From contig CAXBEA010000007.1 of NCBI GenBank assembly GCA_963974645.1, positions 191 to 64,190 of the forward strand: DNA of 64,000 nt, in the 5' to 3' direction. The number at the start of each line of letters is the position of its first letter. The stretch's first letter is position 1. This document shows, one piece after another, positions 7,792 to 24,401 of this stretch. The position numbers and the translations under genes are program-made. Below the pieces are notes generated by a model. It was not told the DNA's origin and did no database searches. It was given only the letters and a program-made list of their open reading frames with translations. This stretch comes from an uncultured Neptunomonas sp. (GTDB lineage: Bacteria > Pseudomonadota > Gammaproteobacteria > Pseudomonadales > Balneatricaceae).

Positions 7792-8637
7792 CTATTCACC
7801 AAGGTAGACCTCGATCACCTTGGAATTGTTTTGGACCTGGTCCATCGTGCCTTCAGCCAGTACCGAGCCTTGATGCAGCACCGTGACAGTGCGGGCGATC
7901 GAGCGGACAAAGTCCATGTCGTGCTCGACCACTACCACCGAGCGCTCGCCAGCGAGCGAGGTGAGTAGTTCGCCGGTACGGTCCATCTCCTGGTGGGTCA
8001 TTCCCGCTACCGGTTCGTCGACCAATAGTAGCTTGGGGTTCTGCATCAGCAGCATACCGATCTCCAGCCACTGTTTCTGGCCGTGCGACAGCACTCCAGC
8101 GGGACGGGCATAGAGCGCTTTCAGACCGATCATCTGCAACGTTTCATCGATCCGGTCATGTTGTTCTGAGTTGATCGAGGCGCGGAATGTGGGCCAGACC
8201 CCTTTGCTACCAGACATCGACAGCTCCAGATTTTCAAACACACTCAACTGTTCAAACACGGTCGGCTTTTGAAACTTGCGCCCGATTCCGGCTTCGGCGA
8301 TCTCTGCTTCGCTCAGCTTGAGCAGGTCAATTTTCTGACCAAACCAAGCCTGACCGCTATCGGGCTGCGTCTTGCCGGTGATGATATCCATCATGGTGGT
8401 CTTGCCAGCCCCATTGGGGCCGATAATGCAGCGCAGCTCGCCTGGTTCGATATACAGATTGAGGTTATTGATCGCCTTGAAGCCGTCGAAACTAACGCTG
8501 AGATCTTCCAGATAGAGTATGCAGTTGTGGCTTAAATCAAGGCGACTAGAAGCCGCTGGTTTGAGAAATTCAAACACTTGATCACGCTTAAGCCAGTCGG
8601 GGGCCATGCCCGTTGAGGTCAATTCAATCGAAGTCAT
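7792..8637 (-). CDS. urtD: Urea ABC transporter ATP-binding protein UrtD
   Basis: LivG-like ABC ATPase (GPNGAGKTT, LSHGQKQ, LLVDEP) with the N-terminal extension common in UrtD. Confidence 0.9.
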   Translation of the reverse strand: MTSIELTSTGMAPDWLKRDQVFEFLKPAASSRLDLSHNCILYLEDLSVSFDGFKAINNLNLYIEPGELRCIIGPNGAGKTTMMDIITGKTQPDSGQAWFGQKIDLLKLSEAEIAEAGIGRKFQKPTVFEQLSVFENLELSMSGSKGVWPTFRASINSEQHDRIDETLQMIGLKALYARPAGVLSHGQKQWLEIGMLLMQNPKLLLVDEPVAGMTHQEMDRTGELLTSLAGERSVVVVEHDMDFVRSIARTVTVLHQGSVLAEGTMDQVQNNSKVIEVYLGE

Positions 8638-9797
8638 AGCGACGCTCCCTTCAGGCGGGTTTGGGTGCTGACGGGATCTGCAGAATCGGTTTTCTGCTCA
8701 TCGTCGTTGTTGCGGTTACCCTTCTTTTTATCGAACAAGCCGACAATTCCCTGCGGTAGGTACAGCGTCACTAGTACGAACAGAGCGCCTAGCGCAAATA
8801 GCCAGGCCTCAGGCATCGCTGCGGTAAGGTAACTTTTTCCGTAGTTGACCAGCAACGCTCCGGCAACGGCACCGAACAGCGTGGCGCGGCCGCCGACGGC
8901 AACCCAGACCACCGCCTCGATCGAGTTTAACGGTGAGAATTCATTCGGGTTGATGATGCCGACCTGCGGCACATAGAGTGCACCAGCAACACCAGCCAGC
9001 ACCGCCGATAGGGTAAACACCGCCAGCTTTATCTTCTCGACCCGGTAGCCGATAAAACGGACCCGGGTTTCAGCATCACGAATTGCCACACTGACCCTGC
9101 CCAAGCGCGAGTTGGTTATCATACGGCAGAGCAGGTAACCCAGCGTCAACGCCACAGCAGAGGCGATAAACAAGCCGAGTCGGGTGCTATCGGCCTGTAA
9201 ACTGAAGCCAAGGATATCCTTAAAATCGGTCAGACCGTTGTTGCCGCCAAATCCCATCTCGTTGCGGAAGAACGCCAGCATCAACGCATAGGTCATCGCC
9301 TGAGTGATGATCGACAAGTAAACGCCGGTGACCCGCGAGCGGAACGCCAACCAGCCAAAGACGAACGCCAGCAGTCCAGGGATCAGCAGCACCATGATCA
9401 TGGCGAACCAGAACTGGTCGAATCCAGCCCAGAACCAAGGTAGCTCCTGCAGATTCAAGAACACCATAAAGTCGGGCAGATCCGGGTTGCCGTAGACGCC
9501 GCGATCACCGATCTGGCGCATCAGGTACATCCCCATCGCATAGCCACCCAGCGCAAAGAAGGCGCCGTGACCCAGGCTGAGAATACCCAGGTAGCCCCAG
9601 GCCAGGTCGACAGCGACCGCCAATAGCGCGTAGCAAAGGTACTTGCCCATCAGCGTAATGGTATAGGTCGGCACATATAGTACCGAGTCTTCTGACAGCA
9701 GCAGATTGGACAGACTTACGCCGACGGTGACCAGCAGCAACAGCGCCAACATGATCTGGCCGCCCCTGTCGTTTTTGAGGATACGTTTAATAAACAT
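8634..9797 (-). CDS. urtC: Urea ABC transporter permease UrtC
   Basis: LivM-like polytopic permease. Its 4-nt overlap with urtD indicates translational coupling. Confidence 0.9.
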   Translation of the reverse strand: MFIKRILKNDRGGQIMLALLLLVTVGVSLSNLLLSEDSVLYVPTYTITLMGKYLCYALLAVAVDLAWGYLGILSLGHGAFFALGGYAMGMYLMRQIGDRGVYGNPDLPDFMVFLNLQELPWFWAGFDQFWFAMIMVLLIPGLLAFVFGWLAFRSRVTGVYLSIITQAMTYALMLAFFRNEMGFGGNNGLTDFKDILGFSLQADSTRLGLFIASAVALTLGYLLCRMITNSRLGRVSVAIRDAETRVRFIGYRVEKIKLAVFTLSAVLAGVAGALYVPQVGIINPNEFSPLNSIEAVVWVAVGGRATLFGAVAGALLVNYGKSYLTAAMPEAWLFALGALFVLVTLYLPQGIVGLFDKKKGNRNNDDEQKTDSADPVSTQTRLKGASL

Positions 9798-9800
9798 CGA

Positions 9801-11411
9801 TTAACCCTCGGCCGCTCGGCCTTTTTGCGGGAACAATCCACGCGGTCGTTTTTGAATGAATAGGATGATGAATACCAGCACCAGAATCTTGGCTAGCACC
9901 GCTCCGGCCCAAGGCTCCATTACCTTGTTGGCGATCCCCAGCGACAGACCCGCAACCAGCGTGCCCCACAGGTTGCCGACGCCGCCAAACACCACCACCA
10001 TGAACGAGTCGATGATATAGGCTTGCCCCAAGTTAGGACCGACGTTGGTCAACTGGCTCAAAGCCACTCCAGCCACACCGGCGACCCCAGATCCCAGACC
10101 AAAGGTCATAGCGTCGACCCATTCCGAGCGTACACCCATGGCGCGCGCCATCTGTCGGTTCTGCGATACCGCCCGTACCTGCAATCCCAGCCGGGTACGT
10201 TTGAGGATCATGTGCAGGGTGAAGAACACCAGCAGGCAGAAGGCGATGATGTAGAGCCGGTTAAGTGTTAACGAAAATATAGGGTTGAGTTCCCACACGC
10301 CGCTCATCCATGCGGGTGTTTCGACCTGCCGGTTCAGTGGCGAGAACACCGTGCGCACCGCCTGTTGCAGCACCAGGCTTAGCCCGAAGGTGGCTAGCAG
10401 GGTTTCCAGCGGCCGGCCATACAGATGCCGGATCACCCCACGCTCGATCGCGATGCCAACCATACCCGAGACTAGAAACGCGGCGGGTACCGCGACCAAC
10501 AGTGAATACTCGATCGAATTAGGCATCAGTTGCTGGACCACATAGGTGGTATAGGCACCTATCATAATCAGCTCGCCGTGGGCCATGTTGATCACCCCCA
10601 TGACGCCAAATGTGATAGCCAGACCGATCGCAGCCAGAATCAGCACCGAGCCCAGGCTTAAACCGAAGAACAGTGTTTGCAGGTTGCCGAATAGATCGAC
10701 GCGATCGTCGATGCTTTTTAATACCGCGGTCGCTCTGTTGCGAACGGTCTTGTCCGAGTCGGCGCTGGTGAGCAAATTGATCCGATTACGCACCGGTGGG
10801 TAGAGACTGTCGTCGAGCTGGTTTAACGCCGACAGCCGGACATCTTTATCGTTACTGTCGAGCTGCGCCAGTGCAATGGCAACACTCAGCAGCTTGTTGA
10901 CCTCAGTATCGGTTTCCAACTTACGACGCTGCTGTAATAGAGGTAGGGCTGAACCGTCAATTTCTGACAACATGGCCTCTAACGCATCGTGCCTTACCTG
11001 CGCCGATTCGCTGCCCAGCTGCATTTCGGCGATTGCCTGGGTCAATTGCGATCGTAGGGTGTTATTGATCGAAACCTTCTTGACCTTACGCTTGCCGGTA
11101 CTGCCCAGATCTTCGCCGGTGACAGCGTCGGCCAGCTGGACCTCACTGTCTAACTTGACGACCAGTACGATGCGATTGTCTTTTTTACGGAAATACAGTT
11201 CGCCACGGCTCATCGCTTGTAACAGTTCGAGCGCTTGCTCGTGTTGAGAGTCGGCCAGCAGTTTGATCGCCTCAGATTTCTTGCTAAAGCTTTTTTCTGT
11301 CAGCAGCTGTAGCCCTTGCTCAAAGCTGTTGTCGGCGGCGTTGGCCAGCGGTGCCAGCAGGACGCTAGCTGCAAGTAATAATGCGGCCAGCGCCTCGAGG
11401 CTGTAACGCAT
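9801..11411 (-). CDS. urtB: Urea ABC transporter permease UrtB with an N-terminal periplasmic extension
   Basis: The C-terminal half is a LivH-like permease. I trimmed the start to the ATG at 11411, which gives a signal peptide (MRYSLEALAALLLAASVLLAPLANA). The longest ORF reaches 11546. Confidence 0.85.
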   Translation of the reverse strand: MRYSLEALAALLLAASVLLAPLANAADNSFEQGLQLLTEKSFSKKSEAIKLLADSQHEQALELLQAMSRGELYFRKKDNRIVLVVKLDSEVQLADAVTGEDLGSTGKRKVKKVSINNTLRSQLTQAIAEMQLGSESAQVRHDALEAMLSEIDGSALPLLQQRRKLETDTEVNKLLSVAIALAQLDSNDKDVRLSALNQLDDSLYPPVRNRINLLTSADSDKTVRNRATAVLKSIDDRVDLFGNLQTLFFGLSLGSVLILAAIGLAITFGVMGVINMAHGELIMIGAYTTYVVQQLMPNSIEYSLLVAVPAAFLVSGMVGIAIERGVIRHLYGRPLETLLATFGLSLVLQQAVRTVFSPLNRQVETPAWMSGVWELNPIFSLTLNRLYIIAFCLLVFFTLHMILKRTRLGLQVRAVSQNRQMARAMGVRSEWVDAMTFGLGSGVAGVAGVALSQLTNVGPNLGQAYIIDSFMVVVFGGVGNLWGTLVAGLSLGIANKVMEPWAGAVLAKILVLVFIILFIQKRPRGLFPQKGRAAEG

Positions 11412-11670
11412 GAGGATACTGCCTTGCCTCAACAAAGAGCGCCGGCCTGGCCTTTGTGGGCATCGCAAGCTGGAGTTTGCCATGGCGATAGAATCCTTAG
11501 CCTGACGTAGCCGGCAGGCGTGATAGTGAGTGTTGTGTCCTGCCAAATGGCAGTTATAAACTGAACAAAATCATCCTGGGTATGAGTCGTGCGGGTTCCA
11601 GCCACCAATCTGTCTAGACAGAATTATCGGGGAGTAGCCGGAACCTTTACGCTTAGCCTGGTGGCTCAGG

Positions 11671-12972
11671 TTAGAAGTTCTGACCTGAACACTTACCGGT
11701 CTTGACGTTGTAGTTGCCACACGACAGAGGAGCACGCCAGTCTGAGATCAGATCCTTAGAGCCGGGCAGGAAGTCGGACCAAGCATCACCGAGTACCGTA
11801 CCCGACGTAGCCCAGACCACTTCGAACTGTCCATCGTCTTGAATTTCGCCGATCAGTACCGGTTTGGTGATGTGATGGTTCGGTGCCATGGTCGCGTAAC
11901 CGCCGGTCAAGTTGGGTACGCTGACGCCGATGATGGCCTCTTGCACTGCCGTCGAATCAGTCGTACCGGCCTTTTTAACCGCTTCTATCCACATATTGAA
12001 GCCGATGTAGTGCGCTTCCATCGGGTCATTGGTGACTCGCTTATCGTTGCCGATATACTCGTGCCACGCGCTGATGAACGCATCATTGGCCGCGTTATCG
12101 ACACTCATGAAGTAGTTCCAGGCGGCTAGATGGCCGACCAGCGGCTTAGTATCGATCCCAGACAGCTCCTCTTCTCCGACTGAGAAAGCGACGACAGGGA
12201 TATCTTCAGATGAGATACCCTGGTTACCCAATTCTTTGTAGAAAGGTACGTTGGCGTCGCCGTTGATGGTTGAAACGACTGCAGTCTTCTTTCCCGTTGA
12301 GCCGAATTTCTTCACATCGGCAACGATACTCTGCCAGTCTGAATGGCCGAATGGGGTGTAGTTGACCATGATGTCCTCGGCCGCTACTCCTTTCATTTTC
12401 AGATACGATTCAAGAATCTTGTTGGTGGTGCGCGGGTAGACGTAGTCGGTACCCGCCAGAACCCAGCGCTTCACCTCTAATTCATTCATCAGGTAATCAA
12501 CGGCAGGAATTGCCTGCTGGTTAGGCGCTGCACCTGTGTAAAAGACGTTTTTGGACGACTCTTCACCTTCGTACTGAACCGGGTAGAACAGGATGCCATT
12601 TAGCTCCTCAACCACAGGCAGCACCGACTTGCGCGACACTGAGGTCCAAGCACCGAAGATCGCATCGACCTTCTCCTTCTCGATTAGTTCACGCGCCTTC
12701 TCGGCGAACAGCGGCCAGTTAGAAGCAGGGTCGACCACCACCGCTTCGAGCTGCTTACCCAGCAGACCACCGTTCTTGTTTTGCTCTGCAATCAACATTT
12801 CCATTGTTTCTTTGAGCGTCGTTTCACTGATCGCCATGGTGCCGGACAATGAATGCAATACGCCCACCTTGATAGTATCGTCGGCGGCGATTGTCAGCGC
12901 CGAGGCTGATAGTGCTGCACAGGTGCTCAAGGCAAGTAGAGATTTCTTAACCGCTTGCTTCGCGATGCTCAT
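11671..12972 (-). CDS. urtA: Periplasmic urea-binding protein UrtA
   Basis: 433 aa with a signal peptide, then DTIKVGVLHSLSGTMAISE, typical of UrtA/amide-binding LivJ-type proteins. Confidence 0.9.
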   Translation of the reverse strand: MSIAKQAVKKSLLALSTCAALSASALTIAADDTIKVGVLHSLSGTMAISETTLKETMEMLIAEQNKNGGLLGKQLEAVVVDPASNWPLFAEKARELIEKEKVDAIFGAWTSVSRKSVLPVVEELNGILFYPVQYEGEESSKNVFYTGAAPNQQAIPAVDYLMNELEVKRWVLAGTDYVYPRTTNKILESYLKMKGVAAEDIMVNYTPFGHSDWQSIVADVKKFGSTGKKTAVVSTINGDANVPFYKELGNQGISSEDIPVVAFSVGEEELSGIDTKPLVGHLAAWNYFMSVDNAANDAFISAWHEYIGNDKRVTNDPMEAHYIGFNMWIEAVKKAGTTDSTAVQEAIIGVSVPNLTGGYATMAPNHHITKPVLIGEIQDDGQFEVVWATSGTVLGDAWSDFLPGSKDLISDWRAPLSCGNYNVKTGKCSGQNF

Positions 12973-13050
12973 TGCGCGCTCCTTGTTTGAATAGGTCAGT
13001 TCGTTTTGGGTTTTCTGGGGTAGTGCACCCTCTTCTTCAATACAGGCATA

Positions 13051-13066
13051 GCAACGAGCAGGCCAA
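13051..13066 (-). promoter_or_regulatory. Sigma54 (-24/-12) promoter for urtA
   Basis: The minus strand reads TTGGCCTGCTCGTTGC. GG and GC are spaced exactly as in the consensus TGGCAC-N5-TTGC. The element lies about 80 nt upstream of the urtA ATG. Confidence 0.6.
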
Positions 13067-13139
13067 TTATTTTTTATGCCTATAAAGCAATTAGATATGT
13101 TGCTTAATTGTGTATTATCATTTTTTTTGAGTATTGTTT

Positions 13140-13155
13140 TGGTGCGAACGCACCA
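13140..13155. promoter_or_regulatory. Palindrome TGGTGCGAACGCACCA, a candidate enhancer-binding (NtrC-type) site
   Basis: Perfect dyad about 85 nt upstream of the sigma54 element. GCACC/GGTGC half-sites resemble NtrC boxes, but their order is inverted relative to the textbook TGCACC-N5-GGTGCA. Confidence 0.35.
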
Positions 13156-13318
13156 CGATGATGCGCGTTAAAGGCAGTAAATAAGGCATTAACTAAAAGT
13201 GGGGGGCTGGTACCAAACTGAATGAGAATAACGTTCGTATCACGCGGACGTTGTAGGTCTTCGGCAAGATGATGCATGAAATAGGCGCTAAACCTGGAGC
13301 GCCCAAGTCCTTCTCAAT

Positions 13319-13366
13319 TTGACAACCACTCATCCTAACTGTACCTTTCTCAAAGGGATTTTTGAG
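13319..13366 (+). promoter_or_regulatory. Candidate sigma70 promoter plus dyad operator in front of the WYL-hsd operon
   Basis: TTGACA (13319-13324), a 17-nt spacer, then TACCTT. It is followed by the dyad CTCAAA-gggatt-TTTGAG (13349-13366), about 25 nt before the WYL gene ATG. Confidence 0.3.
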
Positions 13367-13391
13367 TTCCCATTCGGTCAATGGATGAACG

Positions 13392-14348
13392 ATGTCGCAG
13401 CCTTCAGCACAACTTAATCAGATTGCTCGGCCCCAGCAGGAGCGGCTCGCGTATATCGAGTTTCGCCTGGTGTTTCTTGGCTGTCTGAATCGCTCTGATT
13501 TGGTCAGCCGCTTTGGTCTGAAAGAATCTGCCGCCTCCCGTGATCTGGCGCTTTACAAGCAACTGGCTAGCAACAACATTACCTACGATACCGTCGAGCG
13601 TACCTACCGGATCGGTCTGCAACTCAAGCCGTTGTTTGATTACCAGACGCAACAGGTGCTCACGGCATTGGCCGAGGGTTTTGGCGATGATTTCGTCGCT
13701 AGCTGTGGCTCCATGCTGCCCGTCGAACGGCCCAGTCGGCTGAATACCCTCAGTATTGAGGTGCTGGCTCCGATCAGCCGTGCGCTGTTTAGCGGTCGTA
13801 GCCTAACCGTTACCTATCGCTCGCTGTCCAGTGGCCGCACTACGCTTCCCTTGATCCCTTTAACCCTGGTCGATAACGGCCTGCGCTGGCATCTGCGCGC
13901 TTACGATCTGCAGCACGAGCGTTACGCTGATTTCATGCTGAACCGTATCGAGAAAGTCGAAGAAGCCGACTCCAAGGCGGATCAGGTTGCGTTGCGTCAG
14001 CAAGACAGCGACTGGCAGCAACAACTGGAACTGATCCTGGTTCCTCATCCAGCACTAACTCACCCCGATACCATCGCCTTCGAATACGGCATGGCTGATA
14101 ACCGGCTCAGGCTTTCTGTCCGTGCTGCGTTGGCCGGTTATCTGTTACGGCGCTGGAGTGTGGACTGTACGCCCGATCACCGCCTGCAAGGCCCTGAATA
14201 CCACCTCTGGCTGCAAAACGCCGAGGCACTGCGCCATGCGGCCAAAGACACCTTACCCAATCTCACTCTCGCACCCGGCTTTCTGTCTACCGGGACGGCG
14301 TTAACCCAAGAGAGTGCGCTCAACGCGACGCCACGAGGATTTGCATGA
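13392..14348 (+). CDS. wHTH-WYL domain transcriptional regulator (BrxR/CapW-like defence-island regulator)
   Basis: N-terminal HTH region (RLAYIEFRLVFLGCLNRSDLVSRFGLKESAASRDLALY). WYL-type core (LRWHLRAYDLQHERYADFMLNRI). The stop overlaps the hsdM start (ATGA). Confidence 0.7.
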   Translation: MSQPSAQLNQIARPQQERLAYIEFRLVFLGCLNRSDLVSRFGLKESAASRDLALYKQLASNNITYDTVERTYRIGLQLKPLFDYQTQQVLTALAEGFGDDFVASCGSMLPVERPSRLNTLSIEVLAPISRALFSGRSLTVTYRSLSSGRTTLPLIPLTLVDNGLRWHLRAYDLQHERYADFMLNRIEKVEEADSKADQVALRQQDSDWQQQLELILVPHPALTHPDTIAFEYGMADNRLRLSVRAALAGYLLRRWSVDCTPDHRLQGPEYHLWLQNAEALRHAAKDTLPNLTLAPGFLSTGTALTQESALNATPRGFA

Positions 14349-16249
14349 ATACCACCGAACAACAGTTTCTGAAGGAACTGGACGACAAGCTCTGGAAAGC
14401 CGCCGACAAGCTGCGCGCCAGCCTTGATGCCGCCAACTACAAGCACGTGGTGCTGGGGCTGATCTTTCTCAAGTACGTCTCCGACGCCTTCGAAGAGCGC
14501 CAGCAGGCGCTGCTGGCGCTGTTCCAGCACGACAGTGAGAAGAACATCTACTACTTGCCACGCGAGGACTACGGCAGCGACGAAGCGTACCAGCAGGCGC
14601 TACGGGAGGAGCTGGAGGTGCTCGACTACTACCGCGAGGCCAACGTGTTTTGGGTGCCCAAGCCTGCGCGCTGGAGCACGCTGAAGGAGAAAGCAGCGCT
14701 GCCGATCGGCACGGTGCTGTGGCAGGAGGAGCCTTCAGCGAATGGAAAAGAGCCTTCAGCGAAAGGGAAAGAGCCTTCAGCGAAAGGGAAAGAGCCTTCA
14801 GCGAATGGAAAAGAGCCCTCAGCGAAAGGAAAAGAGCCTTCAGCTCTTAATAGGAAAAAGCCTTCAGCGAATGGCAAGCCGGGTAGCGAGGTGAAGCTGC
14901 GCTCCGTCTCCTGGCTGGTCGACAACGCACTGGATGAGATCGAGAAGAGCAACGCCAAGCTCAAGGGGATTCTCAACCGCATCAGCCAGTACCAGCTCGA
15001 TAACGACAAGCTGATCGGTCTGATCAACTCCTTCTCCGACACCTCCTTCGCCAACCCGGTCTACAAGGGCGAGCCGCTGAGCCTGCACAGCAAGGACATC
15101 CTCGGACACGTCTACGAATACTTCCTTGGCCAGTTCGCCCTCGCCGAAGGCAAACAGGGTGGTCAGTACTACACGCCCAAGAGCATCGTCAGCCTGATCG
15201 TAGAGATGCTGGAACCTTACAGTGGCCGCGTCTACGACCCGGCGATGGGTTCGGGCGGGTTCTTCGTCTCCAGCGATCGTTTCATCGAGGAGCATGCCAG
15301 CGAGCAGCACTACGACGCTGCCGAGCAGAAGAAACACATCTCGGTTTACGGGCAGGAGTCCAACCCCACCACCTGGAAGCTGGCGGCGATGAACATGGCG
15401 ATCCGGGGGATCGACTTCAACTTCGGCAAGAAGAACGCAGACACCTTCCTCGACGACCAGCACCCGGACCTGCGCGCCGACTTCGTAATGGCCAACCCGC
15501 CATTCAACATCAAAGACTGGTGGAGCGAATCACTGGCCGACGATGTGCGCTGGCAGCACGGCACCCCGCCCAAGGGCAACGCCAACTTCGGCTGGTTGCA
15601 GCACATGCTGCACCACCTCGCCCCGACCGGCAGCATGGCGCTGCTGTTGGCCAACGGCTCCATGAGTTCCAATACCAACAACGAAGGTGAGATCCGCAGG
15701 CGCCTGATCGAAGCCGACTTGGTGGAGTGCATGGTGGCGCTGCCGGGCCAACTCTTCACCAACACCCAGATCCCCGCCTGTATCTGGTTTCTGACCAAGG
15801 ATAAGAGTGGCAAGGATGGAAAGAAACGCGACCGTCGCGATGATGTGTTGTTTATCGACGCCCGTAACCTCGGCTACATGAAGGACCGGGTACTGCGCGA
15901 CTTCACCCCGGAAGATATCGCTAAGGTGGCGGATACCTTGCACGCGTGGCGCCGGGCAGGAGCCCAAGTGCCGCGTAGGCCAGGGATGGCCGAGAGCGGC
16001 CCGAAAGGCGAGGCGTATGCGGACGTAGCGGGCTTTTGTGCCTCGGTGGACTTTCAGCAGATCGCCAAACACGACTTCGTACTGACACCGGGGCGCTACG
16101 TGGGCGCAGCGGAACAGGAGAAGGACGGCGAACCCTTTGCCGAGAAGATGGCGCGACTGACCGAACAGCTCAAGGAACAGTTTGAGGAGAGTGACCGGCT
16201 GGAAGCGGCGATCAAGCGCAATCTGGGGGGGCTGGGGTATGAGTGCTGA
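14345..16249 (+). CDS. hsdM: Type I restriction-modification N6-adenine DNA methyltransferase subunit HsdM
   Basis: HsdM_N-type N-terminus ([25 protein letters not shown]), AdoMet motif DPAMGSGGF and catalytic NPPF (VMANPPFN). Confidence 0.95.
14729..14877 (+). repeat. In-frame 21-bp tandem repeat inside hsdM encoding (EPSA[K/N]GK)n
   Basis: Five near-perfect units GAGCCTTCAGCGAA(A/T)GG(G/A)AAA start at 14729, 14750, 14771, 14792 and 14813. Two degenerate units follow. Confidence 0.95.
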
Positions 16250-17747
16250 TTGGACCACCATAAGTCAGGTTGCTGATGTATTCGACGGCCCTCATGCCAC
16301 CCCTAAGAAAATTGAGTCTGGTCCCTATTTTCTTAGCATCTCTAGCTTGAAAAAAGGGAAGCTAGATTTGAGTAAGTCCGCCCACTTAAGTGAGCAAGAC
16401 TTCGTAAAGTGGACCAAGAGAATCACGCCTGAGCAAGGAGACGTTCTGTTTTCCTATGAAACTCGATTAGGTGAAGCGGCTGTGATGCCCGGAGGAGTTA
16501 GGGCATGCCTCGGGCGGCGAATGGGTCTAATGCGACCAAAGCGTGAAGCAGTACTCCCCGAGTACCTCCTTTACGCTTACTTGTCACCTACGTTTCAAGA
16601 CGTCATTAAGGCTAGAACGGTCCACGGATGCACTGTCGACCGGATTGCTTTAAAGGATCTACCTGATTTCCCTATACGAATCCCTAGTATCGAAGAGCAA
16701 AAGAAGGTGGTCGAGACCCTTAGTGCCCTTGATGGAAAAATCCAGCTCAACCAGCAAATAAATCAAACCCTCGAACAGATGGCGCAGGCGATCTTCAAAA
16801 GCTGGTTTGTTGACTTCGAGCCGGTCAAGGCCAAGATCGCCGCCCGAAAGCACTGGCTGGCCATGCAGCCCGCGAACGAAAGCGCCTCGCCCGTGTGTTA
16901 CGCCAGTGAGGCGGAGTATCGACCGCCAGGCGATGAGTCGCCAGCTGTCGATCTGGAAACCGCCATGACCCTCGCCGCCATGCGGGCGATCAGCGGGCGC
17001 GTTCTAACTGATGCGGGCACTGACCCACTTGCCCGTCTGCAGATCGAACAGCCCGAGCAGTACGCCGAACTGCGCGCCACCGCCGCACTCTTCCCCGCCG
17101 CTATGCAGGAGAGTGAGTTGGGGGATATACCTGAGGGGTGGGAAGTCGGTAGCTTAACTGACCTTCTGGAGTTCAATCCTCGCCGAATTCTAAAAAAAGG
17201 CGTGGTCGCTCCATATCTTGACATGAGAAATGTTCCGACATCGGGGCATCTTGCAGAGGAAATTATCGAACGAGAAATGGGTAGTGGTACAAAATTCGTC
17301 AACGGCGACACTCTGCTTGCTCGGATTACTCCTTGCCTTGAAAACGGCAAGACAGCGTTTGTTGATTTCCTTGGTGACGGGGAGACGGGCTGGGGGTCAA
17401 CCGAGTACATCGTATTGCGACCAAGGCCCAGTTATCCTACTTCACTTGGATATTTCATTGCGCGTAATGATAGCTTCCGTTTATCAGCTACTCAGTCCAT
17501 GACGGGCACAAGCGGCAGGCAACGAGCAAACGCGAAGGCCTTAGCGGATCTAAAATGGACTGTTTATCCTCCCGACCTTGTTGGGCGCTTCGATTCTATC
17601 GCTGGGTCATATCTGGGCTTGGCAAGGAGCCACGGCGATGAAAGCAAATCGCTGGCTCAGCTCCGCGACTCCCTGCTCCCCAAGCTCCTCTCCGGCGAAC
17701 TTACCCTTACCAACTCTGCAGAACGGAGTGCTCAGGTGGCCGTATGA
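16239..17747 (+). CDS. hsdS: Type I R-M specificity subunit HsdS (two target-recognition domains)
   Basis: There are two TRDs. Each is followed by the conserved helical region (EEQKKVVETLSALDGKIQLN..LEQMAQAIFKSWFVDFEP and SLAQLRDSLLPKLLSGEL). The ATG at 16239 overlaps the hsdM end by 11 nt. The longest ORF starts at 16182. Confidence 0.9.
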   Translation: MSADWTTISQVADVFDGPHATPKKIESGPYFLSISSLKKGKLDLSKSAHLSEQDFVKWTKRITPEQGDVLFSYETRLGEAAVMPGGVRACLGRRMGLMRPKREAVLPEYLLYAYLSPTFQDVIKARTVHGCTVDRIALKDLPDFPIRIPSIEEQKKVVETLSALDGKIQLNQQINQTLEQMAQAIFKSWFVDFEPVKAKIAARKHWLAMQPANESASPVCYASEAEYRPPGDESPAVDLETAMTLAAMRAISGRVLTDAGTDPLARLQIEQPEQYAELRATAALFPAAMQESELGDIPEGWEVGSLTDLLEFNPRRILKKGVVAPYLDMRNVPTSGHLAEEIIEREMGSGTKFVNGDTLLARITPCLENGKTAFVDFLGDGETGWGSTEYIVLRPRPSYPTSLGYFIARNDSFRLSATQSMTGTSGRQRANAKALADLKWTVYPPDLVGRFDSIAGSYLGLARSHGDESKSLAQLRDSLLPKLLSGELTLTNSAERSAQVAV

Positions 17748-18763
17748 ACAAAGACCTCACATCTTCACTGGTGGCGCGCAAAAACGTACTGAACAACCCT
17801 TATGCGTTAACCCAGCTAGAAACCAATTTGCGGCTTGGCGGTTTGCACTTTGAGGGGGAGACCGTTTTTACCAAGCAGCAAACGGCGGACATTCTTGCCG
17901 TCGATGAACGCACGGTTGATCGTTATTTGAGCAGCCATAGTGAAGAGCTTAAAGCCAACGGCTATAGCGTGCTAAAGGGGAAAGCCTTGAAGGCTCTACG
18001 CTTAGCTTATGTCGACGACACAGATGTCGTCGACATAAATCCTAAGGCACCTTCACTTGGGGTGTTCAGTTTTCGAGCAGTTTTAAACTTGGCGATGCTC
18101 GTCACAGAAAGTGAGCGAGCCAAGGCGATTCGTAGTCGGATGCTGGACATCGTTATTGATGTGATCGCTGAGAAAGCAGGCGGGCATACCAAGTTCATCA
18201 ACCAGCGTGACCAAGACTACTTGCCTGCCGCCTATATGGAGGACAGCTACCGCAAGCAGTTCACCGATGCTCTAAAAGATTGCCTGGACATGGGGCATTT
18301 CAAATATGCCGTGTATACCGACAAAATCTACAAGGCGGTTTTTTGCGAGAACGCTGTTGAGTACAAAAAGGTGTTGCGTCTGGCGGGCAAAGACAAGACT
18401 CGTGAAACTATGTACGCCGAGGTCCTAAAAGCGATAGCTAGCTTTGAGCACGGGCTAGCAGTCCAGATGCGTCAGGAATCAGAACGGCTAGGCAGAATGC
18501 TTAAACCAGCGGAGCTTGATGCACTGATTGCCGTAGCAGAGAGCAACCCGTTTTTAAAACCCGCTATAGAAGACGCTCGCGCCCGCATGGCCAGTCGTGA
18601 CCTGGGCTTTCGAGATGCCCTACATGACAAACTGGAGCATTACATCCAGTCAGTGCCTGAGGGGGACTTCGATAAGTTTCTTGGTGAAAAGAGCCGGTCA
18701 TTAGAGGAGCAGCTTTCTGACGCCGAAACGCTTAGTGTGCTTAAACGGCTAAAGGACCGCTGA
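17744..18763 (+). CDS. HTH-containing protein of unknown function embedded in the hsd operon (orf339), possibly a distant RhuM-like protein
   Basis: Likely HTH (FTKQQTADILAVDERTVDRYL). The rest is helical with no motif I can name. The start overlaps the hsdS stop (ATGA), and the stop is 1 nt before the doc GTG. The RhuM relationship rests only on overall architecture and context. Confidence 0.75.
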   Translation: MNKDLTSSLVARKNVLNNPYALTQLETNLRLGGLHFEGETVFTKQQTADILAVDERTVDRYLSSHSEELKANGYSVLKGKALKALRLAYVDDTDVVDINPKAPSLGVFSFRAVLNLAMLVTESERAKAIRSRMLDIVIDVIAEKAGGHTKFINQRDQDYLPAAYMEDSYRKQFTDALKDCLDMGHFKYAVYTDKIYKAVFCENAVEYKKVLRLAGKDKTRETMYAEVLKAIASFEHGLAVQMRQESERLGRMLKPAELDALIAVAESNPFLKPAIEDARARMASRDLGFRDALHDKLEHYIQSVPEGDFDKFLGEKSRSLEEQLSDAETLSVLKRLKDR

Positions 18764-18764
18764 C

Positions 18765-19205
18765 GTGGAGTTTACTATTCTCTACTTCGACCTGGATCAT
18801 GCGATAAGCGTGCATGACTGGATCATTGAGCACTCTGGAGGATTGGCCGGCACCAAAGACGCAGGTCAGCTATCAAGCGTTCTGGAACATATACAGAATG
18901 ACTGGTACTACCCGAGTTTTGAAGAAAAGCTGAATCACTTAGTTTTCGCCATCAATAAATTTCACTCCTTCAACGATGGTAACAAACGCTCCAGTTTGGT
19001 GTTGGGTGCCTATTTCCTTGAATTGAATGGCTATGACTACTGTGTGAAGCCATTCATGCTGGAGATGGAGAATATCGTCGTATGGCTTGCAGAAGGCAAA
19101 ATATCTAAAGACCTGTTACTCAAATTGATTACGTCATTGATCATGGATGACGACTACCCCGAAGATCTCAAGCTTGAGCTGCTGGAAGCATTGGAAAAGG
19201 AATAG
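18765..19205 (+). CDS. doc: Fic/Doc (death-on-curing) family toxin-like protein
   Basis: Fic/Doc motif HxFx(D/N)(A/G)NKR is present as HSFNDGNKRSS. The N-terminus (VHDWIIEHSGGLAGTKDAGQLSSVLE) is typical of Doc. GTG start. Confidence 0.85.
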   Translation: MEFTILYFDLDHAISVHDWIIEHSGGLAGTKDAGQLSSVLEHIQNDWYYPSFEEKLNHLVFAINKFHSFNDGNKRSSLVLGAYFLELNGYDYCVKPFMLEMENIVVWLAEGKISKDLLLKLITSLIMDDDYPEDLKLELLEALEKE

Positions 19206-19207
19206 GG

Positions 19208-22200
19208 ATGATGAACGAGGATCAACTGGAACAGCTCTGCCTGGAGTGGTTTGCCGACAACGGTTGGGAGATCGCCCACGGGCCGGATATTGCCCATGAC
19301 GGCCCGACGCCGGAACGCAAAGATTACCGTCAGGTGGTGTTGCAGGCTGATCTGGAAGCGGCGATCCGCCGCATCAACAACCATCTGCCTGACAGTGCGG
19401 TGGAACAGGCGCTGGCACAGGTGATCAAACCTGAAAGCCTCGATGTGGTGGTCAGCAACCGTTCTTTTCACCGCCTACTGCTCGAAGGGGTTCCTGTCGA
19501 ATACAAACGTGACGACAAGCAGATGCATGACCATGCACTGTTGATCGACTTCGATGTTGTCGATGCCAACCGTTTCCGAGCGATTAACCAAATCACCATC
19601 GAAGGCAGCAAACAACTGCGTCGCCCCGATGTGATCTGTTTTATTAACGGTCTACCCATCGCGGTGTTGGAGCTAAAGAGTCCCTCCGCCGAGAACGCCG
19701 ATATCTGGGATGCGTTCAACCAGATTCAGACCTACAAAGACGAAGTCAGCGACCTATTCGTCTTCAACGAAGCTTTGGTGGTCAGCGACGGTTACACCGC
19801 ACGTGTCGGCTCCCTGACCGCGAACCAGGAGCGTTTTATGCCTTGGCGCACCATCAAGAGCGAGGACGACAAACCGCTGCTAGAGTGGCAGTTAGAGACG
19901 TTGGTACGTGGCTTCTTCGACCGAGAGCTGCTGCTGGATTACATCCGCTACTTCGTGCTGTTCGAGACCGACTCCGCCAATCTGATCAAGAAGATCGCAG
20001 GCTACCATCAGTTCCACGCAGTACGTGAGGCGGTGCGTGCGACCCTTGTTGCCGCTGAGCATGTTGAGGGCGTCGCTGAGAAACGTGCGACCTACGCCGA
20101 CCGGGTAGCACCGGGCAGTAAGAAAGCCGGTGTGGTCTGGCATACTCAAGGTTCTGGCAAGAGTATCTCCATGTGTTGTTACGCCGGTAAGTTGCTACAG
20201 CAACCGCAGATGAACAACCCGACTCTGATCGTGGTGACGGACCGTAATGATCTTGACGGTCAGTTGTTCAAGACATTCACCGACGCCAAAGAGTTGTTGC
20301 GCCAGACGCCGGTGCAAGCCGATGACCGCGACAAGCTACGCCAGCTGCTGGCCGAGCGCGAGTCCGGCGGCATCATCTTCACCACGGTGCAGAAGTTTGC
20401 CGTGATGAACGAGGAGTCGGCCCATCCGATACTGAATGATCGCCATAATATCGTGGTGATCTCCGACGAGGCGCACCGTAGCCAATACGGACTGAAAGCC
20501 ACCCTGAAGCAGGACGGCAGCTACAAGTTCGGTTACGCCAAGCACATGCGCGATGCACTGCCCAACGCGGCCTTTATCGGCTTTACCGGTACACCCATCG
20601 CCAGTGAGGACAAGGACACCCGTGCGGTGTTTGGTGATTACGTCTCCATCTACGATATTCAGGATGCGGTAGAGGACGGTGCCACGGTGCCGATCTACTA
20701 CGAATCACGTCTCGCCAAGCTGGACCTTAACCATGCCGAGCTTGAGCAGTTGTCGGATCAGGTCGAAGAGGTGGTTGAAGACGAGGAAGATGTCAGCTCA
20801 CGCGAAAAGACCAAGGGCGAGTGGAGCCGGCTGGAAAAGCTGGTCGGTGCCGGGCCGCGCCTGAAGCAAGTAGCCGAGGACTTGGTAGCGCACTTCGAGA
20901 CCCGTACCGCCAGCATGGACGGCAAGGCGATGATCGTCGCCATGAGCCGCGATATCTGTGCGCAGTTGTACAACGAGATTGTCGCTATTCGACCCGATTG
21001 GCACGGTGCCCCATTAGGCGCAGCCGCTGACCCAGAGAAAGGCGCAATCAAGATTGTGATGACCGGTTCTGCATCGGACAAGCCGTTATTACAGCCACAC
21101 ATCTACAACAAACAAACCAAGAAGCGGATAGAGAAACGCTTCAAAGACCTGAACGATCCACTCAAGCTGGTGATCGTGCGCGACATGTGGCTAACAGGAT
21201 TCGACGCCCCATGCTGCCACACCCTGTACGTCGATAAGCCGATGAAGGGCCACAACCTGATGCAGGCGATCGCCCGTGTGAACCGGGTATTTAAGAACAA
21301 GCCAGGTGGGCTGGTTGTGGATTACATAGGTATCGCCAACGAGCTGAAGCAAGCACTGAAGACCTACACCGATTCCAAGGGCAAGGGTGCGCCGACCCAC
21401 AGTGCCGAAGAGGCGTTTTCCATCCTGCTGGAGAAGCTCGATATCATCCACGGCATGTTCGCCAAGGGACCCAAAAGCGACGGCTTTGACTACAGCGGGT
21501 TTGAAACTGAAGCCCACAAACTACTGGTACCTGCCGCTAACCACATCCTCGGCTTGGAAGACGGCAAGAAGCGTTTCCTCGATACCGTATTGGCGCTTAG
21601 CAAAGCGTATTCGCTATGCAGCACATTGGATGCTGCCCGTGAATACCACAAAGAGATCGCCTTCCTATCAGCAGTCAAAGCGGCCATCACCAAGCACACC
21701 AGCGTGGACCGCAAGCTGACCCAGGAGGATAAAAACTCCGCCCTCAAACAGATCCTCGACAATGCCATAATTGCCGAAGGGGTGGCCGATGTTTTCGCCC
21801 TCTGCGGTCTCGACAAGCCCAACATCGGTCTGCTGTCGGAAGAGTTCCTCGAAGACGTGCGCCAGATGCCCTACACAAATCTGGCGGTTGAGCTACTGGA
21901 GAAACTGCTCAAAGACGACATCCGCGCCAAGACCCGCAACAACCTGGTGCAGGAGAAGAAGTACGCCGAGCGCCTGCAAGAGACCCTGCGCAAGTACAAC
22001 AACCGAGGTATAGAAACCGCCCAGGTGATCGAAGAACTGATCGCCATGGCCAAGCAGTTCCAGGAAGAGATGGCTCGCGAGGCCGCATTGGGGCTCAACC
22101 CCGACGAGATCGCTTTCTACGATGCTCTGGCCAACAACGAAAGCGCCGTGCGCCAGCTGGGCGATGAGATCCTCAAAAAGATCGCCGTCGAGATCACCGA

Positions 22201-22378
22201 CAAGCTGCGCAAATCCACCACTGTGGACTGGCAGGTACGCGAGAGCGTGCGCGCCAAACTGCGTATCCTCGTGCGCCGAACGCTACAACGGTACAAGTAT
22301 CCGCCTGATCAGGCACCGGAAGCGGTGGAGCTGATATTGAAGCAGGCTGAGGTGCTGTCTTGTGGGTGGGCGGCTTGA
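19208..22378 (+). CDS. hsdR: Type I restriction endonuclease/translocase subunit HsdR
   Basis: 1056 aa with an HSDR_N-type nuclease N-terminus. Helicase motifs: HTQGSGKS, DEAH (VISDEAHRSQ), GFTGTPI, QAIARVNR. Confidence 0.95.
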   Translation: MMNEDQLEQLCLEWFADNGWEIAHGPDIAHDGPTPERKDYRQVVLQADLEAAIRRINNHLPDSAVEQALAQVIKPESLDVVVSNRSFHRLLLEGVPVEYKRDDKQMHDHALLIDFDVVDANRFRAINQITIEGSKQLRRPDVICFINGLPIAVLELKSPSAENADIWDAFNQIQTYKDEVSDLFVFNEALVVSDGYTARVGSLTANQERFMPWRTIKSEDDKPLLEWQLETLVRGFFDRELLLDYIRYFVLFETDSANLIKKIAGYHQFHAVREAVRATLVAAEHVEGVAEKRATYADRVAPGSKKAGVVWHTQGSGKSISMCCYAGKLLQQPQMNNPTLIVVTDRNDLDGQLFKTFTDAKELLRQTPVQADDRDKLRQLLAERESGGIIFTTVQKFAVMNEESAHPILNDRHNIVVISDEAHRSQYGLKATLKQDGSYKFGYAKHMRDALPNAAFIGFTGTPIASEDKDTRAVFGDYVSIYDIQDAVEDGATVPIYYESRLAKLDLNHAELEQLSDQVEEVVEDEEDVSSREKTKGEWSRLEKLVGAGPRLKQVAEDLVAHFETRTASMDGKAMIVAMSRDICAQLYNEIVAIRPDWHGAPLGAAADPEKGAIKIVMTGSASDKPLLQPHIYNKQTKKRIEKRFKDLNDPLKLVIVRDMWLTGFDAPCCHTLYVDKPMKGHNLMQAIARVNRVFKNKPGGLVVDYIGIANELKQALKTYTDSKGKGAPTHSAEEAFSILLEKLDIIHGMFAKGPKSDGFDYSGFETEAHKLLVPAANHILGLEDGKKRFLDTVLALSKAYSLCSTLDAAREYHKEIAFLSAVKAAITKHTSVDRKLTQEDKNSALKQILDNAIIAEGVADVFALCGLDKPNIGLLSEEFLEDVRQMPYTNLAVELLEKLLKDDIRAKTRNNLVQEKKYAERLQETLRKYNNRGIETAQVIEELIAMAKQFQEEMAREAALGLNPDEIAFYDALANNESAVRQLGDEILKKIAVEITDKLRKSTTVDWQVRESVRAKLRILVRRTLQRYKYPPDQAPEAVELILKQAEVLSCGWAA

Positions 22379-22715
22379 GTGATATCGAGAGAATTCGAGC
22401 CGCACTGCCAGAGGAAATCAAGGGGCGCGATCACGTGGTTCAGGAACGTCTGCTGAGTGTTCGGCGAACGTTTGCCCATCTCACGCGTGATATAGAGATT
22501 CTGGTAATATACTGGGATGTGCGCTTGCACCAAGATTTTTTGTCTTGCAGCATTAACGACAATTTCGCAGATTGAATAGCTCATACCGTAGTCTCAAACT
22601 TTACCAAAATATTAACGCAGCATTATTAAGAATCCGCCAGTGCGCTGCTTTACATGTTGAAGCTTGAGCGCACGGCTCTACAAGCTTGTATTTATTACAA
22701 TTAAGGTGAATTTAA

Positions 22716-24401
22716 GTGTCTAAAGATAACAAAACCGGAAAGACGGGATCATTCGTCTTTACGATGCACCGAGTGGGCAAAATCGTGCCGCCCAAACGCG
22801 AAATCCTCAAGGACATCTCCCTCTCCTTCTTTCCTGGCGCCAAGATCGGCGTCCTGGGCCTGAACGGCTCAGGAAAGTCGACGCTGCTAAAAATCATGGC
22901 TGGCGTGGACCAGGACTATCTTGGTGAAGCGCGTCCGCAGCCCGATCTAAATATTGGCTATCTGCAGCAAGAGCCGCAGATGGATGCGCATAAAACCGTA
23001 CGCGAAGTGGTCGAGGAAGCGGTATCCGAGGCAAAGAACGCCCTGACCCAGCTCGACGCTATTTACGCCGCCTACGCCGAACCCGATGCCGATTTCGATA
23101 AACTGGCGGCCGAGCAAGCCCGGCTAGAGAACATCATCCAATCCGTCGACGCCCATAACATCGAACGCCAGATGGAGGTCGCGGCAGATGCCCTGCGCCT
23201 ACCCTCCTGGGATGCCAAGGTTGAGCACCTGTCTGGCGGCGAACGTCGTCGCGTTGCGCTATGTCGGTTGCTGCTATCCAAGCCCGACATGCTCCTGCTC
23301 GACGAGCCAACCAACCACCTCGACGCCGAATCCGTCGCCTGGCTGGAGCGATTTTTGGTCGACTTCAACGGCACCGTGGTGGCTATCACCCACGACCGCT
23401 ACTTCCTCGACAACGCCGCCGGCTGGATTCTGGAACTGGACCGCGGCCACGGCATCCCCTACGAGGGCAACTACAGCGCCTGGCTGGAACAGAAAGACGC
23501 CCGTCTGGCAACCGAAGCCAAGCAGGAGGCCGCGCATCAAAAGACCATCAAGTCAGAGCTGGAGTGGGTTCGCCAGGGCTCCAAGGGGCGCCAGTCTAAG
23601 TCCAAAGCGCGCCTCAAGCAGTTCGAGGAGATGAGTTCGCAGAGCTTCCAGAAACGCAACGAAACCCAGGAGATCTATATTCCGCCAGGACCGCGTCTGG
23701 GCGAAAAGGTGATCGAGCTGCACAACGTGTGTAAGTCATTCGGCGATAAAATGCTGGTTGATAACCTGACCCTCACCATCCCACAGGGTGCCATCGTCGG
23801 CGTTATCGGCGGCAACGGTGCGGGCAAGTCGACCCTGTTCAAGATGATCAGCGGCACCGAGCAGCCCGACTCCGGCGAAGTCGTGATCGGTTCAACCGTG
23901 AAGCTGGCCCATGTTGACCAGATGCGCGAACTGGACGGCTCAAAAACTGTCTTCGACGAAATCTCGGACGGCCAGGACATCATCACCGTGGGCAACTACC
24001 AGGTCCCCGCACGCGCTTACGCAGGCCGGTTCAACTTTAAAGGCGGCGACCAACAAAAATTCGTCAAGGACCTGTCCGGCGGCGAACGCAACCGTCTCCA
24101 CCTGGCCAAACTGCTAAAAGAGGGCGGCAACGTACTGCTGCTCGACGAGCCGACCAACGACCTTGATGTTGAAACCCTGCGCGCCTTGGAAGAAGCCCTG
24201 CTGGCCTTCCCCGGCTGCGCCATAGTGATCTCGCACGACCGCTGGTTCCTGGATCGAATCTCAACCCACATCCTCGCCTACGAGAGTGACTCCAAGGCAG
24301 TATTCTTCGAAGGCAACTACAGCGAGTACGAAGCAGATCTCGTAGCCAGAATCGGCGACGCTACGCCACACAGAGTGAAATACAAGAAGATTGATGCTTA
24401 A
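22716..24401 (+). CDS. ettA: ABC-F translational throttle EttA
   Basis: FVFTMHRVGKIVPPKREILKDISLSFFPGAKIGVLGLNGSGKST closely resembles E. coli EttA. It has two ABC cassettes. GTG start preceded by AAGGTG. Confidence 0.93.
   Translation: MSKDNKTGKTGSFVFTMHRVGKIVPPKREILKDISLSFFPGAKIGVLGLNGSGKSTLLKIMAGVDQDYLGEARPQPDLNIGYLQQEPQMDAHKTVREVVEEAVSEAKNALTQLDAIYAAYAEPDADFDKLAAEQARLENIIQSVDAHNIERQMEVAADALRLPSWDAKVEHLSGGERRRVALCRLLLSKPDMLLLDEPTNHLDAESVAWLERFLVDFNGTVVAITHDRYFLDNAAGWILELDRGHGIPYEGNYSAWLEQKDARLATEAKQEAAHQKTIKSELEWVRQGSKGRQSKSKARLKQFEEMSSQSFQKRNETQEIYIPPGPRLGEKVIELHNVCKSFGDKMLVDNLTLTIPQGAIVGVIGGNGAGKSTLFKMISGTEQPDSGEVVIGSTVKLAHVDQMRELDGSKTVFDEISDGQDIITVGNYQVPARAYAGRFNFKGGDQQKFVKDLSGGERNRLHLAKLLKEGGNVLLLDEPTNDLDVETLRALEEALLAFPGCAIVISHDRWFLDRISTHILAYESDSKAVFFEGNYSEYEADLVARIGDATPHRVKYKKIDA

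Follow-up and report, generated by a model that had tools for sequence, protein, structure and literature searches.

Do six tightly packed genes of an uncultured Neptunomonas sp. make up one defence unit, or are they parts that move separately? This question is raised by the block at 13319-22378 of a 64,000-nt stretch of DNA (GenBank assembly GCA_963974645.1, contig CAXBEA010000007.1; the whole stretch is referred to here as the window), in which a preliminary description, made from the sequence alone, had placed a WYL-domain regulator, the hsdM, hsdS and hsdR genes of a Type I restriction-modification (R-M) system, a gene for a 339-aa protein (orf339) and a Doc-type toxin gene in one operon. 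Our analysis indicates that the block is probably a mosaic defence operon, assembled from three independently moving modules, repressed by a regulator of the BrxR family and provided with a Doc back-up. What is new here is a conserved palindrome inside orf339.

Gene content and modular composition of the locus

The six open reading frames (ORFs) of the block are as follows.

13392-14348, plus strand: WYL gene (brxR), 318 aa
14345-16249, plus strand: hsdM, 634 aa
16239 (ATG) to 17747 (end), plus strand: hsdS, 502 aa
17744-18763, plus strand: orf339
18765 (GTG) to 19205 (end), plus strand: doc, 146 aa
19208-22378, plus strand: hsdR, 1056 aa; a second ATG is at 19211

Re-reading of the sequence returned all six ORFs and all five junctions at exactly the coordinates first reported for them. 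An ATGA is common to stop and start at both the WYL/hsdM and the hsdS/orf339 junctions, the hsdS ATG is placed 11 nt within hsdM, and gaps of 1 nt (orf339/doc) and 2 nt (doc/hsdR) separate the remaining genes, the latter being the largest intergenic gap in the block. Each start codon has a Shine-Dalgarno (SD)-like purine-rich stretch 5' of it, within the upstream gene. This tight spacing, with overlaps or gaps of at most 2 nt at every junction, shows the operon-type packing that had been described; the six genes may be translationally coupled and transcribed as a single mRNA, and it is plausible that HsdR depends on passage of a ribosome or transcript through the WYL gene and doc. The identical six-gene locus was found between urtA and ettA in several independent marine metagenome assemblies (Tara Oceans and others; L025-L027), and the locus is therefore not an assembly artefact. 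Relatives of its BrxR and HsdR in Pseudomaricurvus and Marinobacterium point to a marine host, probably a gammaproteobacterium.

The WYL protein appears from its sequence to be a bona fide, full-length transcriptional repressor of the BrxR family. It matched Escherichia fergusonii BrxR (PDB 7qfz) at E=1e-75 over residues 4-297, with weaker matches to CapW and Acinetobacter BrxR, and precomputed Pfam annotation of its protein cluster gave a wHTH-WYL-WCX arrangement (WHD_BrxR, PF26109; WYL, PF13280; BrxR_CTD, PF26107), of which the local Pfam copy detected the WYL domain alone. Single-stranded DNA (ssDNA) is contacted in CapW and BrxR by a Ser, an RWHVR motif and a distal Arg (PMC11662680, PMC13622015), and the same set of pocket residues can be recognized in the WYL protein (SLSSG at 144-148, RWHLR at 165-169 and LNRI with R185). 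Domains, the 7qfz match and ssDNA-contact motifs together uphold its original assignment to the BrxR/CapW type. The position of the regulator inside the operon, not divergent from it, had also been singled out as notable, but this layout proved to be usual for BrxR in the literature: in Acinetobacter, a single BREX transcript begins 23 bp upstream of brxR, its first ORF (Luyten et al., doi 10.1101/2021.12.19.473356), Type I restriction accounts for 34 of the 210 systems downstream of BrxR homologues (Picton et al., PMC9122601), and a co-directional layout recurs in the related locus L035 and, overlapping or within 15 nt, in L029, L032 and L033. The regulator shares with BrxR of E. fergusonii pEFER, Acinetobacter sp. 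NEB394 and Vibrio cholerae SXT, and with CapW, its three domains, the ssDNA pocket with RWHxR, a first and co-directional position with respect to the defence genes and dyad-like promoter sequence; it differs in that its cargo is a Type I R-M system with a Doc cassette instead of BREX or CBASS.

Strong model scores and catalytic motifs likewise established the Type I identity of the R-M genes, and the PADLOC search proposed at the outset matched the R-M subunits to Type I models and orf339 and doc to PDC-M59A and PDC-M59B. HsdM contains Pfam HsdM_N and N6_Mtase (E=3e-109), matches PADLOC MTase_I at 7e-175 and has NPPF and DPAMGSGGF motifs in its translation, and HsdS matches PADLOC Specificity_I at 2e-112 over residues 13-493, with two target-recognition domains, only the first of which is above the threshold for Pfam Methylase_S. 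HsdR combines Pfam HSDR_N, SWI2_SNF2, T1R_D3-like and T1RH-like_C regions (nuclease, SF2 motor and C-terminal assembly domain), scores 629 bits with TIGR00348 and 1200 bits with PADLOC REase_I, and carries GSGKS, DEAH and D...ELK motifs; the nearest solved HsdR, EcoR124I (Type IC), is distant (8e-32 over residues 102-494). All three genes look intact. Breaks in hsdM or hsdR of L028, L049 and L050 were considered as pseudogenization and rejected, as they are N-run scaffold gaps. The second recognition region of hsdS (~17144-17666) had no nucleotide match in L050 (562-1090), where the flanks are 92-97% identical, implying an alternative HsdS specificity allele at the same locus in another population.

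Comparison with related loci separated the block into modules. L032 and L033, from two cultured bacteria (Pseudomaricurvus and Marinobacterium, respectively), have the same BrxR-hsdM-hsdS-[cargo]-hsdR backbone, with HsdM 78% and HsdR 85-88% identical, and carry as cargo between S and R a DUF4268 protein (PDC-S11) with AbiD (L032) or a DUF2971 protein (PDC-S31) with RhuM and Abi_2 (L033). From these comparisons, the S-R junction of the BrxR-M-S-R backbone appears to be a cargo slot, a hotspot for defence genes. The closest BrxR outside Type I loci (71%, in L029), which keeps the same promoter/-35 block, heads an operon of SNF2 helicase, AAA_15 ATPase, 212-aa protein and DUF1156 methylase-like genes with overlapping junctions (8001-16936); a VspR-like gene and a ResIII helicase gene are divergent from this brxR operon.

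A survey of the orf339-doc pair covered 24 genome and 35 viral-collection loci plus several metagenome contigs; orf339 and doc were adjacent in nearly all of them, and their identities to the window copies track each other. In Marinomonas and Aeromonas (L001/L002:10001-11456; L006/L007:9986-11482) the pair stands alone directly downstream of mnmE, close to the rnpA-yidC-mnmE cluster, a site at which insertion may be recurrent. It also follows the mod-res genes of a Type III system on an Ilyobacter replicon and is found next to an integrase on Streptococcus satellite phages, where doc is present and unannotated. In BrxR-free Type I loci, some with additional SoFic or RhuM-like cargo, it comes immediately after hsdS and overlaps it by the same ATGA. 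In Rahnella orf339 is intact and doc is frameshifted, and no locus with an intact doc beside a broken orf339 was seen among those surveyed. On the Streptococcus satellite phage Javan319 (L061:3995-5425) the orf339 homologue is annotated 'CiaB protein' and a 56%-identical doc follows it. Because BrxR, hsdMSR and orf339-doc each occur in other contexts, they are three separately mobile pieces, and the proposal that the six genes be viewed as one unit fails in the sense that they did not co-evolve.

The composite locus is also not a new architecture, being a BrxR-regulated defence operon and, at the same time, a Type I R-M system with embedded candidate genes. Type I R-M, BREX, DISARM and Hma loci often hold embedded genes, 96.7% of them co-oriented, from which the PDC candidates were derived (Payne et al. 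2024 preprint), and PrrC of EcoprrI is the classical occupant of the hsdS-hsdR slot (PMC12707154; Payne et al.). The block resembles EcoprrI and the embedded loci of Payne et al. in its co-oriented, tightly packed cargo between hsdS and hsdR, and the latter in that different defence genes fill the same slot in sister loci; in contrast to EcoprrI, the cargo is a Doc kinase pair with domains unrelated to the ABC-ATPase/anticodon nuclease. Our literature search found no paper naming PDC-M59 and none describing doc between hsdS and hsdR.

Occupation of the prrC slot (PMC12707154) and recurrence of the hsdS/orf339 ATGA overlap in unrelated hosts would fit a PrrC-like guard of the Type I enzyme, silent when the complex is intact and firing upon its inhibition by phage anti-restriction. 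However, the cassette also exists away from any R-M system and beside Type III R-M, and thus cannot need a Type I enzyme, and neither protein has similarity to PrrC, making this explanation very improbable.

The orf339-doc cassette and its intragenic palindrome

Profile searches confirmed that the module between hsdS and hsdR encodes, as had been suggested, a Doc protein of the Fic fold (Pfam Fic, 3e-12; TIGR01550 DOC_P1, 46.5 bits with a cut-off of 38.65). Its HSFNDGNKR motif aligns to HIFNDANKR of P1 Doc (3k33), and this kinase motif is retained in all intact homologues. PADLOC matched orf339 to PDC-M59A at 1.2e-100 and Doc to PDC-M59B at 6.5e-37, with the A and B genes adjacent; the preprint table lists three families for PDC-M59, whereas two genes are present here, with no third PDC-M59 gene between doc and hsdR and no PDC-M59C match among the neighbouring cargo in related loci. 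Doc also matches the C-terminal part (~217-324) of the PADLOC PDC-S23 models, and the RhuM-like protein of L060 matches their N-terminal part. PDC-S23 appears to be a RhuM-N and Doc-like fusion, similar to orf339-doc in pairing a DNA-binding domain with Doc.

The orf339 product has no Pfam family. It has 3316 homologues at E<=0.001, some of which are named 'DNA-binding protein' by their sources, and the family, with thousands of members, spans Proteobacteria, Cyanobacteria, Fusobacteria, Bacteroidota and streptococcal satellites. An AlphaFold2 (AF2) model from a diverse alignment, with a predicted local distance difference test score (pLDDT) of 88 and a predicted template modelling (TM) score (pTM) of 0.80, consists of an N-terminal winged-helix-like domain followed by an all-helical C-terminal part; a shallow alignment gave a pLDDT of 67. 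No structural match to this model below 1e-3 was found in the PDB, where the best, at 7e-3 and of low TM-score, was to the DNA-damage-binding winged-helix protein DdrC. BFVD gave matches to KilA-N DNA-binding proteins and to antirepressors at 2e-5 to 8e-4, again with low TM-scores, and ORF6N or HTH_17 was matched by a few distant members of the orf339 family. Membership in the RhuM or KilA-N families was rejected, with a profile comparison probability of <1% and only weak fold-level resemblance to KilA-N and DdrC, and the protein is best described as a predicted DNA-binding protein outside the named families with an N-terminal winged-helix/KilA-N-like domain. We also rejected orf339 as a Phd-like or known antitoxin, as it lacks sequence similarity to any PDB chain, including Phd complexes; BLASTP of its C-terminus against the Phd sequence gave no alignment. 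M118-L119 (~18095) is invariant across the family, and many database entries of ~220 aa begin with exactly this Met and extend as far as the native C-terminus. They may be gene calls cut short, or M118 may be an internal start, before which no SD-like sequence is visible in the window.

Like phd-doc of P1, the cassette has a tightly coupled partner gene upstream of a Doc with the motif HxFxD(A/G)NKR, and, as in PanA(Phd-C)-Doc, its partner protein is large, with a putatively sensory domain (PMC10440598). It differs from both in this partner, which is 339 aa long and KilA-N/winged-helix-like and in which neither Phd nor Phd-C similarity was detected, in usually having no promoter region of its own when embedded, and in its conserved intragenic palindrome.

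18007-18038, no strand assigned: perfect palindrome with 14-bp arms, TTATGTCGACGACA caga TGTCGTCGACATAA, found by repeat scan at codons ~89-98 of orf339

Conservation of this palindrome was examined in 47 distinct homologous sequences with 43-100% protein identity. In most of them, the longest perfect inverted repeat of the ~1-kb gene maps to the palindrome position. The best arm within a 53-nt interval there had a median of 9 bp and a maximum of 17, compared to a median of 6 bp elsewhere in the gene, and the local repeat was longer than any other in 33 of the 47 homologues and tied in 7. The arms themselves differ by clade (GTCGACGACA / TGTCGTCGAC; GTCTCCGACAT / ATGTCGGAGAC; GGTACCCTCA / TGAGGGTACC; GCTCCCGAAAT / ATTTCGGGAGC), two homologue loci have a 34-bp perfect palindrome at this position, and a CGACAT-NN-ATGTCG core recurs in many clades. 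The peptide encoded at the dyad, which corresponds to the loop modelled with the lowest confidence, varies in reverse-complement codon pairs (V/D, S/G, L/E, P/G, T/G and L/Q), indicating that selection acts on the nucleic-acid dyad.

Covariation was counted on 31 distinct 32-nt segments centred on the dyad. Pairing was present in 84.3% of cells compared to 62.9% in column shuffles, of which 0 of 500 reached the observed value; the covariation score was 0.515 compared to 0.146 in shuffles; and all 14 of the 14 pairs showed changes on both sides. Shifting the partner by 1-3 columns lowered pairing to 27-50%. Centring the segments on the best local repeat of each sequence inflates the innermost pairs, but the 9-17-bp arms in the 53-nt interval far exceed the effect of this choice. 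A palindrome in hsdM (14492-14524) is not conserved in HsdM homologues and, taken as chance, serves as a negative control, showing that the method does not find conservation everywhere. This position of orf339 therefore keeps a dyad across distant relatives through compensatory changes.

Whether the dyad functions as DNA or RNA bears on its interpretation. An mRNA hairpin acting in processing, pausing or stability would agree with the very stable predicted stem (-31.2 kcal/mol, z=-5.9) and with a sequence that is free to vary while pairing is kept, a pattern seen more typically in structures than in fixed recognition sites. Against this, mismatched cells were equally often of the G-U type (8) and the A-C type (8), a symmetry between strands with no sense-strand bias; spacers in homologues are often 0-2 nt, which suits a duplex dyad better; and the CGACAT-NN-ATGTCG core recurs among clades. 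Mismatch symmetry and short spacers mildly favour a duplex-DNA site, and we consider the hairpin possible, though doubtful. Second copies of the half-site that might serve as promoter operators were sought in the remainder of the window and 5' of stand-alone cassettes, and none was found.

As to the role of the cassette, it might be a selfish addiction (post-segregational killing) module that stabilizes the island, with no part in phage defence and no functional link to R-M. Doc is the classical P1 addiction toxin, the pair stands alone in housekeeping neighbourhoods after mnmE, it decays in Rahnella, and a two-gene cassette, whose correspondence to orf339-doc is unconfirmed, was rejected as a candidate in the preprint table. 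Yet the cassette is found time and again embedded within Type I or Type III R-M loci in the same orientation, and is present on satellite phages; the slot it occupies is otherwise filled by AbiD, SoFic and other defence candidates; and orf339, at ~340 aa and strongly conserved, is far above minimal antitoxin size. We therefore regard an addiction role by itself as rather unlikely.

Promoter, candidate operators and flanking sequences

The region upstream of brxR contains the following elements.

13309-13347, plus strand: promoter/operator block accompanying brxR, holding CCTTCTCAA-T-TTGACAACCAC, the -35 and -10 hexamers and an imperfect palindrome
13319-13324, plus strand: -35 hexamer TTGACA, with a 17-nt spacer to the -10
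13342-13347, plus strand: weak -10 hexamer TACCTT
13311-13325, plus strand: imperfect palindrome TTCTCAA-T-TTGACAA from a palindrome scan, centred at the upstream edge of the -35
13349-13354 and 13361-13366 (arms), plus strand: dyad CTCAAA-GGGATT-TTTGAG of the preliminary description, just downstream of the -10

The TTGACA-N17-TACCTT element reported earlier is present at 13319-13347; it was missed by a consensus scan because its -10 agrees with TATAAT at only three of six positions. When the sequences 5' of brxR were aligned for the window, L035 (BrxR 81% identical), L029 (71%) and L032 (61%), homology was seen to begin abruptly at ~13309, with unrelated sequence farther upstream. None of the four loci departs from CCTTnTCAnnTTGACAACCA or from the TGTA at the -10, and the SD/start region is also kept. 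The dyad at 13349-13366, which had been put forward as the operator, does exist but is retained (with one mismatch) in L035 only and replaced by other sequence in L029 and L032, so that its conservation ends with the nearest relative, while CCTTnTCAnnTTGACAACCA is invariant. We estimate that a 6-bp dyad of this kind arises by chance ~0.2 times per 100 nt. The TTCTCAA of the upstream box recurs in the left half of the 13349-13366 dyad. More distant BrxR loci have a clear upstream palindrome that shares the TCAnnnTGA core of the imperfect palindrome at 13311-13325, e.g. ATCATCAATTTGATGAT.

Published BrxR operators either overlap the -35 (Acinetobacter; doi 10.1101/2021.12.19.473356) or lie just downstream of the promoter (pEFER; PMC9122601), making both candidates positionally plausible; R-BOX1 of pEFER is located between the promoter and brxR, a position similar to that of the 13349-13366 dyad (PMC9122601). 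We rate the -35-overlapping block as the better putative operator and 13349-13366 as a possible second BrxR box. Published half-sites are 10-11 bp, and the best candidate here, known from sequence alone, is shorter.

A further question is whether this promoter serves all six genes or whether an internal promoter drives hsdR, or orf339-doc-hsdR, leaving BrxR in control of brxR-hsdMS only. In classical Type I systems, hsdR commonly has a promoter to itself. In addition, a second promoter lies downstream of brxR in pEFER (PMC9122601), and Luyten et al. suspected one inside brxR (doi 10.1101/2021.12.19.473356). The consensus scan, which is too crude to exclude an internal promoter, found no promoter-like site on the plus strand of 13400-22378, and 1 site compared to 4.9 expected on both strands of 12800-22900. 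The sole plus-strand terminator-like site in the block, at 19617 inside hsdR, is within chance expectation, and this, along with the intergenic gaps of 2 nt or less, also speaks against separate units. We consider an internal promoter unlikely.

Two other features were mapped within or at the end of the block.

14729-14874, plus strand: tandem repeat in hsdM, an in-frame 21-nt unit encoding EPSA[K/N]GK ~6-7 times, lineage-specific
22370-22403, plus strand: 11-bp stem-loop across the hsdR stop codon, lacking a U-tract (z=-2.0 for a 151-nt stretch)

The tandem repeat sits between the HsdM_N and catalytic domains, has one extra unit in L027 and only two degenerate units in L035, and is absent from the 568-aa orthologues of L032 and L033; assemblies break at it (N-gap in L028). 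The hsdM palindrome at 14492-14524, with 15-bp arms and one mismatch, is probably a by-product of CAG/CTG-rich codons. The stem-loop might be a 3' end or stability element, for which the evidence is weak; no intrinsic terminator was predicted on the plus strand after hsdR. A minus-strand ORF of 91 aa (22309-22584) overlaps the 3' end of hsdR and is annotated as a gene in public assemblies, and no family match was found for it.

The flanking genes are, as first described, urtA (minus strand, 11671-12972) and ettA (22716-24401). Homology to other brxR loci starts at ~13309, and immediately beyond this left edge, at 13284-13303, the GC-rich inverted repeat GGCGCT-N8-AGCGCC may be a urtA-side element or mark an insertion boundary. 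No island-free urtA-ettA version that would fix the boundaries was found, all contigs with an identical EttA having hsdR upstream. No att-like flanking direct repeats, tRNA or integrase were found at the locus, and 12500-23000 contained no Rfam families.

Proposed mechanism and significance

We propose that brxR arrived with its own promoter/operator block (13309-13347) and that, by analogy to its homologues, a BrxR dimer represses the single upstream promoter (13319-13347). In V. cholerae, ssDNA drives derepression of BrxR during restricted infection (PMC13622015). By analogy to that protein and to CapW, ssDNA from a restricted infection or from DNA damage would bind the WYL pocket and free BrxR, raising expression of the whole operon downstream. 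HsdMSR would methylate host DNA and cut unmodified DNA, with the methylase made before the nuclease because hsdR is last in the operon. Gene order, co-inheritance and decay pattern suggest that orf339-doc, in the S-R slot, acts as a toxin-antitoxin-like abortive-infection back-up, in which Doc would be an EF-Tu-type kinase arresting translation and orf339 would restrain Doc and probably act as the sensor. Restraint by orf339 is suggested by Rahnella, where it is intact beside a broken doc, the reverse never being seen in the surveyed loci. The orf339 dyad could be a cis-acting DNA site and, more speculatively, is most likely a binding site for orf339 itself, providing feedback independent of the host promoter; in this operon, such feedback might also throttle doc and hsdR.

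Several points weigh against this proposal. For the cassette, orf339 resembles neither Phd nor another known antitoxin in sequence, its putative antitoxin role being drawn from gene order and co-inheritance; no anti-phage phenotype is known for the cassette; and Table S8 of Payne et al. names a three-family PDC-M59 and a rejected two-family cassette, the mapping of either to orf339-doc being unconfirmed. Absence of the half-site elsewhere in the window and upstream of stand-alone cassettes weakens a classical operator model for the dyad. For the promoter, the -10 departs from consensus at half of its positions, and the best operator candidate has 7-bp arms with one mismatch (6/7) and includes the -35 hexamer, which would be conserved anyway. 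Finally, the consensus scan cannot exclude a weak promoter inside orf339 or doc, and hsdR often has its own promoter in classical Type I systems.

A bolder version, which we regard as quite improbable, is that orf339-doc is a new kind of Doc-based immune module in which the intragenic palindrome of ~26-30 bp is an essential cis element. If this were true, the palindrome might be a self-operator, through which a promoter-less cassette sets its own dose and that of downstream genes (hsdR) in any host operon, or alternatively a 'tripwire' in duplex or cruciform form, which frees Doc when it is occupied or cleaved in infection. Combined with ssDNA-triggered derepression of BrxR, restriction products would then feed forward to arm the abortive back-up.

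As a whole, the operon is one more case of two published patterns, diverse defence operons headed by BrxR and defence genes nested in Type I R-M loci. Its sister loci, with three cargos on one backbone and one regulator on a different system, nevertheless provide a clean natural case of modular assembly, in which the S-R junction is the exchange point. The part worth bench effort is orf339-doc, a widespread cassette that joins a Doc kinase, a large, strongly conserved and structurally unassigned predicted DNA-binding protein and an intragenic palindrome, the last offering an experimental handle on the control of a promoter-less toxin cassette within operons not its own.

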